A stretch of DNA of 32,000 nucleotides from an uncultured Opitutales bacterium (lineage in GTDB: Bacteria; Verrucomicrobiota; Verrucomicrobiia; Opitutales; Intestinicryptomonadaceae). A model generated the notes under the pieces. It was given only the letters and a program-made list of their open reading frames with translations. It was not told the origin of the DNA and did no database searches. Each line of letters begins with the position of its first letter. Position 1 is the first letter of the stretch. Shown piece after piece: positions 22,113 through 31,888 of the stretch. The translations under genes were made by a program, and so were the position numbers. Where the stretch lies: positions 562,717 to 594,716 of the forward strand of contig CAKTSY010000001.1 in assembly GCA_934613415.1 (NCBI GenBank), read 5' to 3'.

Positions 22113-22688
22113 CTACTCGGAAATTGCGGCTATAATAGAGTCTATATCGGCAAGTCTGCCAACGCCCTCTTTGCCGCAGGCAAGCATACCGCTTTGGGGA
22201 GCTATAAAGTTTACGCCCCACTCTTTAAGCGTTTTTATATTTTTTTGAACCGCAGGCGAATTATACATATTGCAGTTCATTGCCAACGCCACATATTTTT
22301 TTGCGTTCGACGCCATAAAACAGGTAGAAAGAAAATCGGGAGCCAAGCCGTTTGCAAAATTGCCCAATGTGTTTGCCGAACACGGAGCTACCAAAAATAT
22401 TTGCGCAAAATCGGCAAGGGCAACGTGCTCTACTTCCCACTGCCCCTGATTTTCCCACATAGAAACATACACTTTGTTTTTTGAAAGAGTTTGGAATATA
22501 AGCGGGTTTACAAGCTTGGCGGCGTTTTCGGTCATTACAACTTTAACGCAGGCTCCCGCCTTTACCAATTTAGAGGTTAAATCGGCTGCCTTGTATACGG
22601 CAATAGAGCTGCATACCCCCAACAAAATGTGCTTGTCTTTTAGCGGATTCACGCAGAATATAATTTTACTGAAATTTTGAATAATCAA
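22113..22688 (-). CDS. coaC: Stand-alone flavoprotein of the phosphopantothenoylcysteine decarboxylase (CoaC/HFCD) family
   Basis: HILLGVCSSIAVYKA and PCSANTLGNFANGLAPDFL motifs. No CoaB (synthetase) domain is attached. The track start is TTG at 22688; the alternative GTG at 22652 fits the usual N-terminal length better. Confidence 0.7.
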   Translation of the reverse strand: MIIQNFSKIIFCVNPLKDKHILLGVCSSIAVYKAADLTSKLVKAGACVKVVMTENAAKLVNPLIFQTLSKNKVYVSMWENQGQWEVEHVALADFAQIFLVAPCSANTLGNFANGLAPDFLSTCFMASNAKKYVALAMNCNMYNSPAVQKNIKTLKEWGVNFIAPQSGMLACGKEGVGRLADIDSIIAAISE

Positions 22689-26851: not shown

Positions 26852-27631
26852 ATGGCTATTACTGCAAAAAACAAAGTTTTAGGCATCGACATTGGCGGCT
26901 CTGGCGTAAAAGGCGCCATTGTAGACATAAAAAAAGGCGAATTTGCCAGCGAAAGGGTTAGAATTCCCACGCCCGTTCCCGCAACAAAAGAGGGGCTTAT
27001 TGCCGCCATAGGCGAGATAATAAAAACGCTGAACTGGAAGGGGAAAATAGGCTGCGGCTTTCCCGGCATTGTAAAAGACCAGGTTATAGAAAGCGCCGCA
27101 AATTTGGGCGACGACGTTTTTAGAGGCACAAACCTTGCAGAGGAAATTGGCCGCAATTTCGGCAACGACGCCTGGATTATAAACGACGGCGACGCCGCGG
27201 GCCTAGCCGAGCTTTATTTTGGGGCCGCCAAGGGGCGAAAAGGAACTGTTATAATGCTTACCATAGGCACTGGCATAGGCTCTGCAATATTGTTCGACGG
27301 CCACCTTTTGCCCAATAGCGAGCTTGGGCACATAAGGGTTGCCGACCCGAAGAAAAAGGGCAAGGCAATTTCGGCCGAAAAGCTTTATAGCGATGCCGCA
27401 CGCAAAAAATTCGAATACGGCTGGAAACAATGGGCAGTAAAGTTCAATGAGTATATAGCTTATGTGGAAAGACTTTTTTCGCCAAACCTTATTGTTTTGG
27501 GCGGGGGTGCCGCAGCCAAGGCCGACAAATATTTTAAATATCTGCACAGCACCTGCGACATAGCCATTGCCGACCTCGAAAACAAAGCGGGCATTATAGG
27601 CGCAGCCTACCGCGCCCACCAAAAGCTCTAG
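26852..27631 (+). CDS. ppgK: Polyphosphate glucokinase-like ROK-family sugar kinase
   Basis: Start at the ATG at 26852 (259 aa). LGIDIGGSGVKGAIVDIKKGEF..ERVRIPTPVPAT closely matches the N-terminal pattern I recall for actinobacterial PpgK. The length (~260 aa) also fits. Confidence 0.7.
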   Translation: MAITAKNKVLGIDIGGSGVKGAIVDIKKGEFASERVRIPTPVPATKEGLIAAIGEIIKTLNWKGKIGCGFPGIVKDQVIESAANLGDDVFRGTNLAEEIGRNFGNDAWIINDGDAAGLAELYFGAAKGRKGTVIMLTIGTGIGSAILFDGHLLPNSELGHIRVADPKKKGKAISAEKLYSDAARKKFEYGWKQWAVKFNEYIAYVERLFSPNLIVLGGGAAAKADKYFKYLHSTCDIAIADLENKAGIIGAAYRAHQKL

Positions 27632-27635
27632 GCGC

Positions 27636-27831
27636 CTTTTGTGGTCGAACCTGGCGTTCTCGTCTCCTACTGCTTACAACAAAAAAGGCTCCGTTTTCAC
27701 GGAGCCCTTTTTGGTTGACCAGTAGGCATTGGACTCGCTCGCTTGGTTTTGCTTTCGCAAAATCCGCGCTGTTCTCGCCCTTCGGGTAAATGCTTCCGCA
27801 TTTATCCTCCACAAAAGCTCGCATCCTGCGA
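27636..27831. repeat. Repeat unit 1 (X1 27636-27726 + Y1 27727-27831)
   Basis: X1 contains the ppgK terminator and a 15-nt copy of the tRNA-Gln 3' end (27712-27726). Confidence 0.95.
27681..27712 (+). terminator. Rho-independent terminator of ppgK (copy 1 of the repeated bidirectional terminator)
   Basis: AAAAAA-GGCTCCG-ttttca-CGGAGCC-CTTTTT. The stem is perfect in this copy. Confidence 0.8.
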
Positions 27832-28026
27832 CTTTTGTGGTCGAACCTGGCGTTCTCGTCTCCTACTGCTTACAACAAAAAAGGCTCCGTTTTCACGAAG
27901 CCTTTTTGGTTGACCAGTAGGCATTGGACTCGCTCGCTTGGTTTTGCTTTCGCAAAATCCGCGCTGTTCTCGCCCTTCGGGTAAATGCTTCCGCATTTAT
28001 CCTCCACAAAAGCTCGCATCCTGCGA
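27832..28026. repeat. Repeat unit 2 (X2 27832-27921 + Y2 27922-28026)
   Basis: Contains a second orphan tRNA-Gln 3'-end copy (27907-27921) and a terminator copy. Confidence 0.95.
27877..27907. terminator. Repeated terminator hairpin, copy 2
   Basis: GGCTCCG-ttttca-CGAAGCC with A-run and T-run flanks. The stem has one C/A mismatch on the plus strand, which becomes a G-U wobble on the minus strand. Confidence 0.6.
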
Positions 28027-28116
28027 CTTTTGTGGTCGAACCTGGCGTTCTCGTCTCCTACTGCTTACAACAAAAAAGGCTCCGTTTTCACGAAGCCTTT
28101 TTGGTTGACCAGTAGG
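28027..28116. repeat. Repeat unit 3 (X3 only), continuous with the intact tRNA-Gln gene
   Basis: Its last 15 nt (28102-28116) are the genuine 3' end of the tRNA. Confidence 0.95.
28072..28101 (-). terminator. Rho-independent terminator of tRNA-Gln (copy 3)
   Basis: On the minus strand, immediately after the CCA: AAAAGGCTTCG-tgaaaa-CGGAGCC-TTTTTTG. Confidence 0.8.
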
Positions 28117-28175
28117 GACTCGAACCCCAACAAAAGGTGCCAGAAACCTTTGTGCTACCATTACACCACTGGTCA
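28102..28175 (-). tRNA. tRNA-Gln (anticodon CUG), CCA encoded
   Basis: Hand-folded 74-nt cloverleaf: acceptor TGACCAG/CTGGTCA (U1-A72), D arm GTGT-AATGGTA-GCAC, anticodon arm AAGGT-TTCTGGC-ACCTT, T arm TGGGG-TTCGAGT-CCCTA, discriminator A, CCA. Confidence 0.93.
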
Positions 28176-28190
28176 ATTTATAAAGGCGCT

Positions 28191-28218
28191 ATTCTCTTAT
28201 ATTCTTTAATTATGTCAA
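28191..28218 (-). promoter_or_regulatory. Sigma-70-type promoter candidate for tRNA-Gln
   Basis: On the minus strand, TTGACA (28218-28213), a 16-nt spacer, then GAGAAT (28196-28191). This would start transcription about 10 nt before the mature 5' end. Confidence 0.5.
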
Positions 28219-28274
28219 GAACAATTTGAATTTTGCCTAAATGCAAAGCATATACTTGTTTGACAACATAAAAG

Positions 28275-28314
28275 TTTAAAGTGCCATTTTAAAGTGCCAA
28301 AATGGCACTTTAAA
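28275..28314. promoter_or_regulatory. Three 12-bp TTTAAAGTGCCA sites (direct, direct, inverted): candidate protein-binding array
   Basis: Sites at 28275-28286, 28288-28299 and the inverted copy at 28303-28314. All three are perfect. Confidence 0.4.
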
Positions 28315-28617
28315 TTTACTAAGTCTCTTTCAACCCTACAGATTTTGCGAATATTAAGCGTTTGCCATTTGCAAAGTTTTTTTGATTGGCTGGCAGTGCA
28401 GATAGGAAGTTTGCAACCTATATAAACACTACCGGGAATTTTTAATGTCAGTTTTAAATAAATATACGCTTTTGTTTTGATATAGTGTAGTGCCTTTGCC
28501 CTACCCTAAAGGAAATCGGCAAAAGACTTATTGAATTTTACCAAAACAAAAAAACACTGTTTTTTCAGGATATAGACATTTTATATACAAATTGTTTTAC
28601 CCATTCTAATAATTTAA

Positions 28618-30675: not shown

Positions 30676-30821
30676 AACTCTTTCAAAGTAATTATGTACG
30701 GGTATATGGTATTTAGAATACCATATGCTGCAAAATTTGTGCAATACTCTGATTATCAGACAAAATTATTTATTGAAATATTGATTCTTTTAAAGCCTAT
30801 CTTTGAAAAAGAAATCCTGGA

Positions 30822-30874
30822 ATTGTCAACAAACCAAACAGTACAAAAGTTTTTTGGCTTTTGCTGTTGACAAT
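30822..30874. promoter_or_regulatory. 10-bp perfect inverted repeat just upstream of the integrase start
   Basis: ATTGTCAACA (30822-30831) and TGTTGACAAT (30865-30874), 33 nt apart. Each arm contains an outward-facing TTGACA. Confidence 0.3.
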
Positions 30875-30889
30875 GGTATTCTAAATACC

Positions 30890-31888
30890 ATGAACAATGA
30901 ATTGATATCAGCGAGGGCTCTTTTAAGGGGCAAAAACATTAGCGTGTTAGATGCAGCTAGGCTTATTTGCAATATTGCAGATTTTATGCCCAAAAAATCC
31001 AAACTTACTACCCTTCAGTTTTGCGCCAAAGTAATTGATATTGGCAAAAATAACTTTAGGCAAAACGAAATGCCCATAGCCAAAGGCTTTGATATTTATT
31101 TGCAGACAAAGCAGGATTTGCGAAAAGCCTCGTTTAGCGACATTAAATATTTGGGCAATAAGTTGATGAAAGCCAAACCCGAATTTGCCAAGCGCAATTT
31201 TTCGGAGCTTAGTGTTGCAGACTGTGAAGAGTGGCTAAATTGTGCTTTTACAACCCCAAGCCAATACAACAAAGGACGCGCTATGTTGCACGGGTTGTTT
31301 GAATTTGCCCTAAGGCGCGAGTGGTGTGATAAAAACCCGATAAAGCGAATTTTAAGAAAAAAGGTAATAGAAAAAGAAATTTTGCCACTAAAGCTATTTG
31401 AAATTAAAAGAATTATAACCAATGCCAAAAAGGAGAAAAACGGCATATATTTGCCTGCCGTTGCCCTTTTGGTCTTTGCAGGCATTCGCCCGCGCGAAGT
31501 TAGGCGTTTAACTTGGCAGGATATTGATTTGCAGGAAAACACAATAACGGTGCGCTCGCTGTGTTCCAAAACAGGCGGGGTGCGCCAAGTAGAAATTATG
31601 CCGCAATTAAAGCGCATTTTGCTAAGCTATAAACCGAAACCCCAGCAAAAAATATGCCCTGTAAACTGGCAACGACGTTGGCGCAAAATACGCAACCATT
31701 CGGGCTTTAGCGGCCGCTGGGTGCAAGACGTTTTGCGCCACACCTACGCCAGCTTTTTTGCCAAGCGTTTTAAAGACTTGCCGCGCCTACAGCTAAATAT
31801 GGGGCACAGCAACCAAATGCTTCTGCGAAGCCGCTACATAAATATGCGCAACATCTCGCGCTTTGAAGCCGAAAAGTTTTTCAACTAA
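30890..31888 (+). CDS. Tyrosine-type site-specific recombinase/integrase
   Basis: Start taken at the ATG at 30890 (332 aa; the track ORF begins at an upstream TTG). Catalytic signature in order: AGIRPREV (Arg I), VLRHTYAS (Arg II region), MGHSN (His) and RSRYI (Tyr). Confidence 0.85.
   Translation: MNNELISARALLRGKNISVLDAARLICNIADFMPKKSKLTTLQFCAKVIDIGKNNFRQNEMPIAKGFDIYLQTKQDLRKASFSDIKYLGNKLMKAKPEFAKRNFSELSVADCEEWLNCAFTTPSQYNKGRAMLHGLFEFALRREWCDKNPIKRILRKKVIEKEILPLKLFEIKRIITNAKKEKNGIYLPAVALLVFAGIRPREVRRLTWQDIDLQENTITVRSLCSKTGGVRQVEIMPQLKRILLSYKPKPQQKICPVNWQRRWRKIRNHSGFSGRWVQDVLRHTYASFFAKRFKDLPRLQLNMGHSNQMLLRSRYINMRNISRFEAEKFFN

Follow-up and report, generated by a model that had tools for sequence, protein, structure and literature searches.

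A probable tandem array of RtT-type tRNA-linked repeats joined to tRNA-Gln(CTG) in a gut Opitutales bacterium

The 178-bp repeats next to the tyrT gene of Escherichia coli, called RtT, have been known since 1978 (Egan and Landy 1978) and belong to the tRNA-linked repeats (TLRs), which were also treated by Rudd (1999; both summarised in PMC8144298). E. coli K-12 has 22 TLRs at ten loci in tRNA and rRNA operons, and a TLR is defined by its location and by the identity of its 3' end with the last 18–19 bp of the upstream gene (PMC8144298). The rrn-linked TLRs (rrA, rrB and rrF), located between the terminators T1 and T2, are transcribed when polymerase reads through T1, and both Hfq and CsrA bind to them in vitro; the TLRs of tRNA operons have low predicted CsrA-binding scores, no function has been established for them, and an early claim that linked RtT to the stringent response was later withdrawn (PMC8144298). 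Through Rfam, RtT has been noted in Xanthomonas (PMC3300014) and in Pasteurellaceae (PMC4986893). The literature that we searched, in which Enterobacterales, Pasteurellaceae and Xanthomonas are the known hosts, holds no report of a TLR or RtT outside the Gammaproteobacteria. Here, we describe a repeat array directly downstream of a tRNA-Gln(CTG) gene in 32,000 nucleotides of DNA (the window) from an uncultured Opitutales bacterium of the phylum Verrucomicrobiota (GenBank assembly GCA_934613415.1, contig CAKTSY010000001.1, positions 562,717–594,716). With a probability of roughly 0.8, we read this array as tandem RtT-type TLRs joined to the tRNA gene, which would be expressed by read-through and resized by recombination.

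The array is the sole large one in the window (Tandem Repeats Finder: 27632–28116, period 195, 2.5 copies, 98% matches). As the repeat similarity reaches 27616, within the last codons of the convergent ppgK gene, the array spans 27616–28116. In the frame of the repeat finder, the two full units (27706–27900 and 27901–28095) are 100% identical. The partial unit distal to the tRNA differs from them by two substitutions (27635 C/A and 27698 G/A) and a 1-nt indel, which is one substitution more than an earlier note on this DNA had counted. That note named the tRNA 3' block together with the 75 bp downstream of it X, and the stretch between the X copies Y. Its description of the topology is right: the copies are displaced tRNA 3' ends whose homology breaks in the T arm, Y differs from the sequence that follows X in the tRNA, and the near-identity of the copies does argue for recent amplification. 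We confirmed the last 15 nt of tRNA-Gln (CCTACTGGTCAACCA on the tRNA strand) at 28102–28116, 27907–27921 and 27712–27726, the T-loop-like CGAGTC with a 5-nt insertion at the tRNA-proximal edge of Y, and the resemblance of CCACAAAAGCTC (27809–27820) to the end of ppgK (27616–27628).

The units begin at the base after the CCA of tRNA-Gln and on the same strand, which is the location that defines a TLR. The contiguous identity with the tRNA is 15 nt in the window and 16 nt in other strains, where GGGATTGG stands in place of GGCATTGG, and 7 more nt (CGAGTCC) agree beyond the 5-nt insertion. This is shorter than the canonical 18–19 bp and within the range of 12–19 nt of our family scan (see below). 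TLRs come in one to several copies, often in tandem, and here there are 2.5 copies, with 1.5 in other assemblies. No extra tRNA gene was found inside the units, as ARAGORN and Rfam at the gathering threshold found tRNA-Gln alone.

In each full unit, the 3' third of the tRNA recurs imperfectly and in antisense as the 5' arm. This arm covers part of the acceptor 3' strand and the T arm, where the T loop has become GAGAAC. In the predicted fold, this arm pairs with the terminal tRNA copy in a closing helix, CAGUAGG/CCUACUG, and leaves an 8-nt tail that consists of four acceptor nucleotides, the discriminator base and CCA. At the place where the T loop would continue stands a core of about 105 nt (H1, H2, CCCGAAGGGCGA and H3). 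The predicted fold of the unit has an energy of −80.4 kcal/mol (z = −7.1 vs shuffles), and the minimum-free-energy structure holds the terminator hairpin, the closing helix and all three hairpins H1, H2 and H3. The distal truncated unit keeps the terminator (27687–27706), the antisense arm, AGGTTCGA (27652–27645) and an H1-like hairpin, the 3' strand of which overlaps the stop and last codons of ppgK; H2, motif B and H3 are absent. The coordinates of the features are given in Table 1.

Table 1 Features of the repeat array and its surroundings (positions in the window; minus-strand parts of a unit are listed in tRNA sense)
Feature	Position	Strand	Remarks
tRNA-Gln(CTG)	28102–28175	minus	intact, CCA encoded; ARAGORN; Rfam tRNA 60.1 bits
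Proximal full unit	27907–28101	minus	195 nt; sequence, fold, sub-threshold Rfam RtT match, model R1, pattern match
Terminator hairpin and U tract	28101–28072	minus	proximal unit; intrinsic, bidirectional
Antisense arm	28071–28044	minus	proximal unit; holds CAGTAGG (28063–28057) and GAGAAC (28052–28047)
AGGTTCGA (motif A, sense T-arm half)	28043–28036	minus	proximal unit
Hairpin H1, AGGAU loop	28035–28004	minus	proximal unit
Hairpin H2, GGAA loop	27999–27982	minus	proximal unit
CCCGAAGGGCGA (motif B)	27981–27970	minus	proximal unit; between H2 and H3
Hairpin H3, GAAA loop	27960–27940	minus	proximal unit
CGAGTCC	27932–27926	minus	proximal unit
tRNA 3' copy CCTACTGGTCAACCA	27921–27907	minus	proximal unit
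Middle full unit	27712–27906	minus	100% identity with the proximal unit; its sub-features lie at an offset of 195 bp; tRNA 3' copy 27712–27726
Matches in the middle unit		minus	model R1 27749–27848; motif pattern 27775–27848
Distal truncated unit	27616–27711	minus	repeat search; terminator scan; weak R1 and nhmmer matches 27630–27652
ppgK (ROK-family polyphosphate glucokinase)	26852–27631	plus	convergent with the tRNA; ORF list; Pfam ROK
Tyrosine recombinase gene	30803–31888	plus	Pfam Phage_integrase, 3.5e-14

It is in their terminator stems (27687–27706 vs 27882–27901 and 28077–28096) that the copies show the G/A difference. The copy nearest ppgK forms a perfect Watson-Crick stem on the plus strand, which is the sense of ppgK. 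The two tRNA-proximal copies have a C-A mismatch on the plus strand and a G-U pair on the minus strand, which is the sense of the tRNA. Some strains carry the A form of the terminator in all copies.

RtT (RF00391) was the only non-trivial family on the units in an Rfam E-value scan. Both full units match the full model on the minus strand with 19.5 bits (E 0.43), below the gathering score of 45. In the Rfam alignment, AGGUUCGA and CCCGAAGGGCGA are identical to the RtT consensus and the hairpin between them is in register. The blocks follow each other in the order of RtT, i.e., 5' arm, GAGAA, AGGUUCGA, H1, H2, CCCGAAGGGCGA, H3 and tRNA copy, with H3 aligning poorly. The closing helix, which ends in the short ...NCCA tail, lies 13 nt before motif A. 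In the whole window, the array alone holds the motif pair AGGTTCGA-N54-CCCGAAGGGCGA, in two places, and 100 shuffles gave none; hence, it is not due to chance.

In E. coli, the tyrT locus holds 3.1 tandem copies of RtT and one more in the tyrT-tyrV spacer. Each of the four copies scores 133–137 bits and ends in the last 19 nt of tRNA-Tyr. Like the window, E. coli has a tandem array directly downstream of a tRNA gene and co-oriented with it, and its units end in the tRNA 3' end. The 5' arm is complementary to the tRNA copy and leaves an 8-nt tail in both, the pairing segments being GGGGAAGG/CCTTCCCC in E. coli and CAGTAGG/CCTACTG in the window. GAGAA, AGGTTCGA, CCCGAAGGGCGA and the hairpins come in the same order, and H2 has a tetraloop. 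The two differ in the tRNA and the host (tRNA-Gln in Verrucomicrobiota vs tRNA-Tyr in Enterobacterales), in the period (195 vs 178 bp), in the tRNA copy (15–16 nt with a 5-nt interruption vs 19 nt) and in the Rfam score (19.5 vs 133–137 bits). Moreover, H1 and H3 are longer in the window, and every unit contains an intrinsic terminator. The rrn TLRs of E. coli likewise place a repeat between two terminators, carry a 3'-end copy of the upstream stable-RNA gene and have GGA motifs in loops. They differ from the window in that they follow 5S rRNA, are single-copy at each locus and have been shown to bind Hfq and CsrA in vitro.

For a wider view of the family, we scanned one genome per species with the pattern AGGTTCGA-N30-60-CCCGAAGGGYGA, the motifs of which were taken from the alignment of the window with RtT. 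The scan gave at least 120 loci. At least 84 distinct units among the matches listed have the motif pair near a tRNA on the same strand, usually 35–90 nt downstream of it. In these 84 units, an exact copy of the tRNA 3' end follows 22–40 nt after the motif pair; it is 16–19 nt long in nearly all of them and typically begins at T-loop position 58 or 59. The linked tRNAs are Tyr, Lys(UUU, CUU), Gln(UUG, CUG), Arg(CCG, ACG, UCG), Ser and Pro. The hosts among the matches listed are mainly Enterobacterales, and most are Gammaproteobacteria. Further hosts are Thioalkalivibrio, Ectothiorhodospiraceae, Sedimenticolaceae, Woeseiaceae, Lysobacterales, Salinisphaera, Kangiella, Legionellales and Pseudomonadales. 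One host is a Kiritimatiellales metagenome-assembled genome (MAG), which belongs, as does the host of the window, to the Planctomycetes-Verrucomicrobia-Chlamydiae (PVC) group. Tandem arrays are common elsewhere too, with 3.1 copies in E. coli, nine in Photorhabdus (L045), three at locus L043 and two at L058. A terminator between the tRNA and the TLR or within each unit is found at seven loci (L031, L050, L070, L121, L131, L150 and L151).

The non-enteric gammaproteobacterial TLRs (linked to Gln, Arg, Lys, Ser and Pro; L014, L033, L058, L059, L070, L075, L100 and others) resemble the window in several respects. Some are linked to tRNA-Gln, H1 is long and has a GGA-containing loop, several have a terminator between the tRNA and the unit, and some form tandem arrays of 2–3 units. 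They differ in phylum, in the tRNA copy of 18–19 nt, and in the segment after motif B, which has 22–40 nt vs 63 nt in the window.

Two kinds of scan matches were discarded. In six of them (L016, L068, L080, L081, L097 and L123), AGGTTCGA is the T loop of a real tRNA, and others lie in coding regions (e.g., L035, L042, L049, L053, L063 and L091). TLR loci of gammaproteobacterial type also turned up in three assemblies labelled Firmicutes or Gemmatimonadota. L077 (Vagococcus sp. WN89Y) is of the enterobacterial tRNA-Tyr type, L090 (a Gemmatimonadales MAG) is linked to tRNA-Arg, and L095 (Paenibacillus camelliae) is a 426-bp contig that is too short to type. These three probably reflect contamination or mis-binning and not true hosts.

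Across the family, the closing helix lies 9–17 nt before motif A and leaves a tail of 5–9 nt, and it changes with the tRNA. For 75 of the 77 units compared, the antisense of the cognate tRNA 3' end gives the 5' arm a higher alignment score than non-cognate tRNAs do on average. The arm thus tracks the identity of the tRNA, as is expected of an antisense tRNA copy. In the window, 16 of 20 positions match the cognate antisense with one gap (CAGTAGGAGACGAGAACGCC vs CAGTAGG-GACTCGAACCCC). The E. coli arm reads GGGGAAGGATGAGAAGCTTCGA vs GGGGAAGGATTCGAACCTTCGA for the antisense of tRNA-Tyr, and in L075, 25 nt of the arm align to the antisense tRNA, into CCA. By sequence comparison, the conserved GAGAAC is a modified antisense T loop, and some members have an intact ATTCGAACC. 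The closing helix and P2 (GAACC/GGUUC) are the two halves of one duplex between the arm and the sense tRNA segments, broken by the core at the T loop.

The core hairpins were analysed in an alignment of 18 cores from outside the window (A3). For H1–H3, 83.8% of the cells are paired, compared with 57.3% in shuffles and 31–40% with slid partners. All 18 pairs of H1–H3 show compensatory changes, and none of 500 shuffles surpassed the covariation score of 0.552 (vs 0.164). Structural constraint is, hence, acting on the three core hairpins. RNAalifold on MAFFT alignments retrieved the closing helix, P2 and H3 alone, so a hand-drawn structure was needed for H1 and H2. The covariance model R1, for which the same 18 cores were used, singles out the two full units of the window (29.1 bits, E 2e-5); its third-best match is the truncated unit (9 bits). 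The nhmmer profile reached E 1.3e-4 on the window.

Other pairings of motif A were noticed as well. In columns 3–6 and 34–37 of A3, RNAalifold pairs its GUUC with a conserved GAAC just after H1 in the non-window cores. In foldback units, GGUUC of motif A can pair instead with the upstream GAGAACC, and the Rfam structure offers, as an alternative, UUCG of motif A with CGAA of motif B.

Several points weigh against assigning the array to the TLRs. The Rfam score is far below the gathering score of RtT; 16 of the 18 non-enteric family members tested also fall below this score, and since only two pass, the low score of the window is typical of distant members. With 15–16 nt, the tRNA copy falls short of the canonical 18–19 nt and is split by the 5-nt insertion. 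Compared with the family, H3 and the stretch that follows motif B are longer, and they align poorly. The E-values of the profile and of the covariance model are not independent, as motifs A and B were the search key. Because the arm is an inverted tRNA copy, covariation in the closing helix is by itself no proof of selection for pairing and could reflect the way in which the unit was made. Finally, a strong terminator directly 3' of the tRNA could leave the units almost silent. Independent support comes from features outside the search key: the position and strand relative to the tRNA, the terminal tRNA copy, the antisense arm with GAGAAC, the helix geometry, the type of the H1 loop and the tandem repetition.

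Ordinary intergenic DNA that was duplicated by slippage or unequal crossing-over, without function and with a coincidental or vestigial resemblance to RtT, would fit the 100% identity of the two full units and the copy number that varies among assemblies. It would also fit a terminator right after the tRNA that may block expression, and the lack of a demonstrated function for tRNA-operon TLRs (PMC8144298). However, this explanation leaves the antisense tRNA arm and the terminal tRNA copy unaccounted for, as well as GAGAAC, the in-register hairpins and a 20-nt motif pair that is identical to that of E. coli RtT and did not arise in the shuffles. We, therefore, regard neutral duplication as improbable. 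It is compatible with the TLR reading as far as the expansion of the array is concerned and differs only on whether the unit is a TLR.

We then compared the window with assemblies of the same species. These were independent assemblies from ENA and Logan of human-gut metagenomes (Hadza, Nepal and others), all based on short reads. The same layout is present in L008, L009 and L132–L139. L132, L134, L135, L137 and L139 read X-Y-X, with 349 bp between the stop of ppgK and the 5' end of the tRNA. The window and L133 read X-Y-X-Y-X (544 bp), and L008 also reads through two Y before its contig ends. Among about 17 same-species assemblies, we found no empty site and no locus without Y, the arrangement of ppgK, X and tRNA-Gln that the earlier note had proposed to look for in relatives; there are always one or two full units. 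Many short-read contigs end 34–39 bp beyond the stop codon of ppgK, and within the array two scaffolds are interrupted by N gaps, because repeats have this effect on short-read assemblers. Therefore, the exact copy number (one or two full units) is uncertain for each strain.

These contig ends and N gaps would also fit a single X that was mis-assembled into a stacked repeat, an option that the earlier note had raised. Yet at least eight independent assemblies from varied samples and assemblers cross X-Y-X or X-Y-X-Y-X with identical junctions, and Y is present in every one of them. An assembly artefact can, thus, hardly be credited.

The other options in the earlier note took the tRNA 3' copies as att sites of tyrosine-integrase elements in tRNA-Gln, so that the 195-bp units would be minimal mobilisable elements or the amplified stump of a deleted island. 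Integrases with a crossover in the T loop recombine in the T arm, and the copied tRNA segment then runs to CCA. Elements that target tRNA genes sit on the 3' side of the tRNA. The segment copied here also begins in the T arm and runs to CCA, and, as with att sites, it forms direct repeats. Furthermore, the window holds a gene of the Phage_integrase family in a stretch of lower GC content (0.30–0.45 vs 0.45–0.52 to the left). Contigs of other samples break 90–176 bp from either end of this gene, which suggests that the segment is repeated or strain-variable.

This gene, the only one of its family in the window, is, however, 2.6 kb away on the 5' side of the tRNA, with three genes in between (TRL lipoprotein, pentapeptide/PEP-CTERM protein and a hypothetical protein). 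On the 3' side, in or beside the array, there is no integrase, and no credible open reading frame (ORF) lies between the copies. No tRNA-Gln fragment is near the integrase gene, and elsewhere in the window there is none but one chance 11-mer at 22617. Att repeats would be limited to the tRNA-derived identity, with element-specific sequence between them. In the window, the identity block is 90 bp long, 75 bp of it are non-tRNA sequence including the terminator, and the whole unit is in tandem. The repeated block also holds an antisense copy of the tRNA 3' third, which an att core would not. Y is no element-specific cargo but the conserved structured core of the RtT/TLR family: homologues of it lie beside other tRNAs in other phyla, and covariation is seen in its hairpins. 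In E. coli, functional tRNA genes enclose TLRs within tRNA operons, other TLRs follow 5S rRNA, and no integrase is near them (PMC8144298). Integration would show itself by both occupied and empty sites or by excised circles; the lack of an empty site among the about 17 assemblies may argue against it, and TLRs are not enriched in viral contigs. A scan of 2.9 million viral contigs gave eight matches, five of which were chance matches in coding DNA and three of which were true TLRs in host tRNA operons at the edges of predicted prophages. As all three true matches are host tRNA-operon DNA, a link to phages or satellites was rejected.

Taken together, we consider an integrase footprint very unlikely. 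From the option of an amplified island stump, the unequal crossing-over between copies can be kept, as it likely resizes the array. An ancient att-like origin of the TLR family may be conceivable because a copy that starts in the T loop is also left by T-loop-crossover integrases.

For the tandem TLRs that we propose, expression could proceed as follows. A putative sigma-70-like promoter upstream of tRNA-Gln, TTGACA-16-GAGAAT at 28218–28191, would drive the tRNA gene, and most transcripts would stop at the terminator that directly follows it. The units would be transcribed only upon read-through of this terminator, each ending at the next one, by analogy with the TLR between T1 and T2 of E. 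coli rrnB (PMC8144298). The tRNA-identical 3' end would draw normal tRNA 3'-end maturation and yield, as an analogue of rrB and rtT, a compact RNA of about 165 nt. On the minus strand, this RNA would begin near 28071–28063 and end in ...CUACUGGUCAACCA (27907 and 27712). Unequal homologous recombination among the identical 195-bp units, or slippage during replication, would shift the copy number. As to a role, a protein-titrating small RNA is a weak lead from the H1 loop CAGGAUG, which resembles a CsrA-type site. The core in the window has four GGA motifs in hairpin-loop contexts vs 1.2 in shuffles (P about 0.03); across the family, no enrichment of GGA in loops was found, so that the lead applies to the window and to the subfamily with a long H1.

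Some loci carry what we call Form 1 copies, in which a tRNA-like copy (Gln, Arg or Trp) is complete except that its T loop contains the TLR core (H1-H2-CCCGAAGGGYGA-H3). These are L043:2350-3151, L057:4330-4700, L098:2340-2610, L116:3550-3830, L037:3860-4140 and L122:7800-8000, from Gammaproteobacteria, Legionellales and 'Rickettsiales' MAGs. The core stands after GGTTCGA and before ATCC, and the antisense arm is absent. An intact copy of the same tRNA follows wherever the locus is long enough (all but L122), and L043 has three interrupted tRNA copies in tandem. The position of the core in these copies suggests that it is an insertion at T-loop position 58/59.

One step further, the core (H1-H2-CCCGAAGGGCGA-H3) could be a discrete mobile or horizontally spread element that colonises the tRNA T loop between positions 58 and 59, which we consider doubtful. 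Such an element would occur in two forms, either inside a complete tRNA copy as at the six loci above or as a foldback, with the antisense tRNA 3' third in place of the tRNA body (E. coli RtT and the window). If this is true, the agreement of 20 of 20 motif bases between Gammaproteobacteria and a PVC-group bacterium would point to a new mechanism of tRNA 3'-end copying and inverted duplication. Alternatively, it would point to a conserved RNA function at tRNA 3'-end recognition, e.g., as a decoy for a binder of tRNA 3' ends or GGA loops.

An ORF on the minus strand (27802–27996) comprises 64 codons and a stop, exactly one period of 195 nt. The encoded peptide is very basic, and GGAGGA stands 3 nt in front of the AUG. 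CCCGAAGGGCGA is translated as P-E-G-R, and the frame agrees with that of the 'protamine-like' tpr ORF inside E. coli RtT. We rejected the 64-codon ORF as a gene, since its frame meets a stop codon in family members with CCCGAAGGGTGA and its start is not conserved relative to E. coli tpr. Conserved coding is unlikely because of this in-frame stop (GGGTGA).

At the other end of the array, the 3' strand of the distal H1-like hairpin (27616–27644) forms the last five codons of ppgK (AHQKL) and its stop. This AHQKL tail is not conserved in the C-termini of homologues. Just past the stop, the junction varies by strain and reads GCGCC, GCGAC or GCGGTAACTTGG. In NCBI, the proteins that share 90% identity or more with AspRS and ppgK of the window carry the name 'Opitutales bacterium' (MAG). 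The nearest named relative of this ppgK, at 58% identity, is from Intestinicryptomonas porci (Verrucomicrobiota, Opitutales). No tRNA-Gln was found downstream of the ppgK homologues at 58–63% identity (L142, L144 and L145), and the orthologous site is, therefore, not comparable. Upstream of tRNA-Gln, about 100–140 bp from its 5' end and within an AT-rich spacer, lies a near-perfect palindrome (28272–28317) with 19-nt arms that are 95% complementary and an internal direct repeat, TTTAAAGTGCCA, present twice. It might act as an operator-like site or terminate transcription of the region upstream.

For annotators, the locus indicates that stacked tRNA 3' ends are not always att sites. The window departs from the canonical TLR by its shorter and interrupted tRNA copy, its longer H1 and H3 and a terminator in each unit. 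The description of the antisense arm and the Form 1 copies inserted in the T loop may be new. The antisense 5' arm, the core at T-loop position 58/59 and the three covarying hairpins give handles for experiments. An element known since 1978 and functionally unexplained is, thus, met in a gut bacterium of the Verrucomicrobiota, a phylum for which the searched literature has no earlier case. The same core motifs and pairing geometry, re-tailored to another tRNA, point to a design that is either very old or transferable between phyla.

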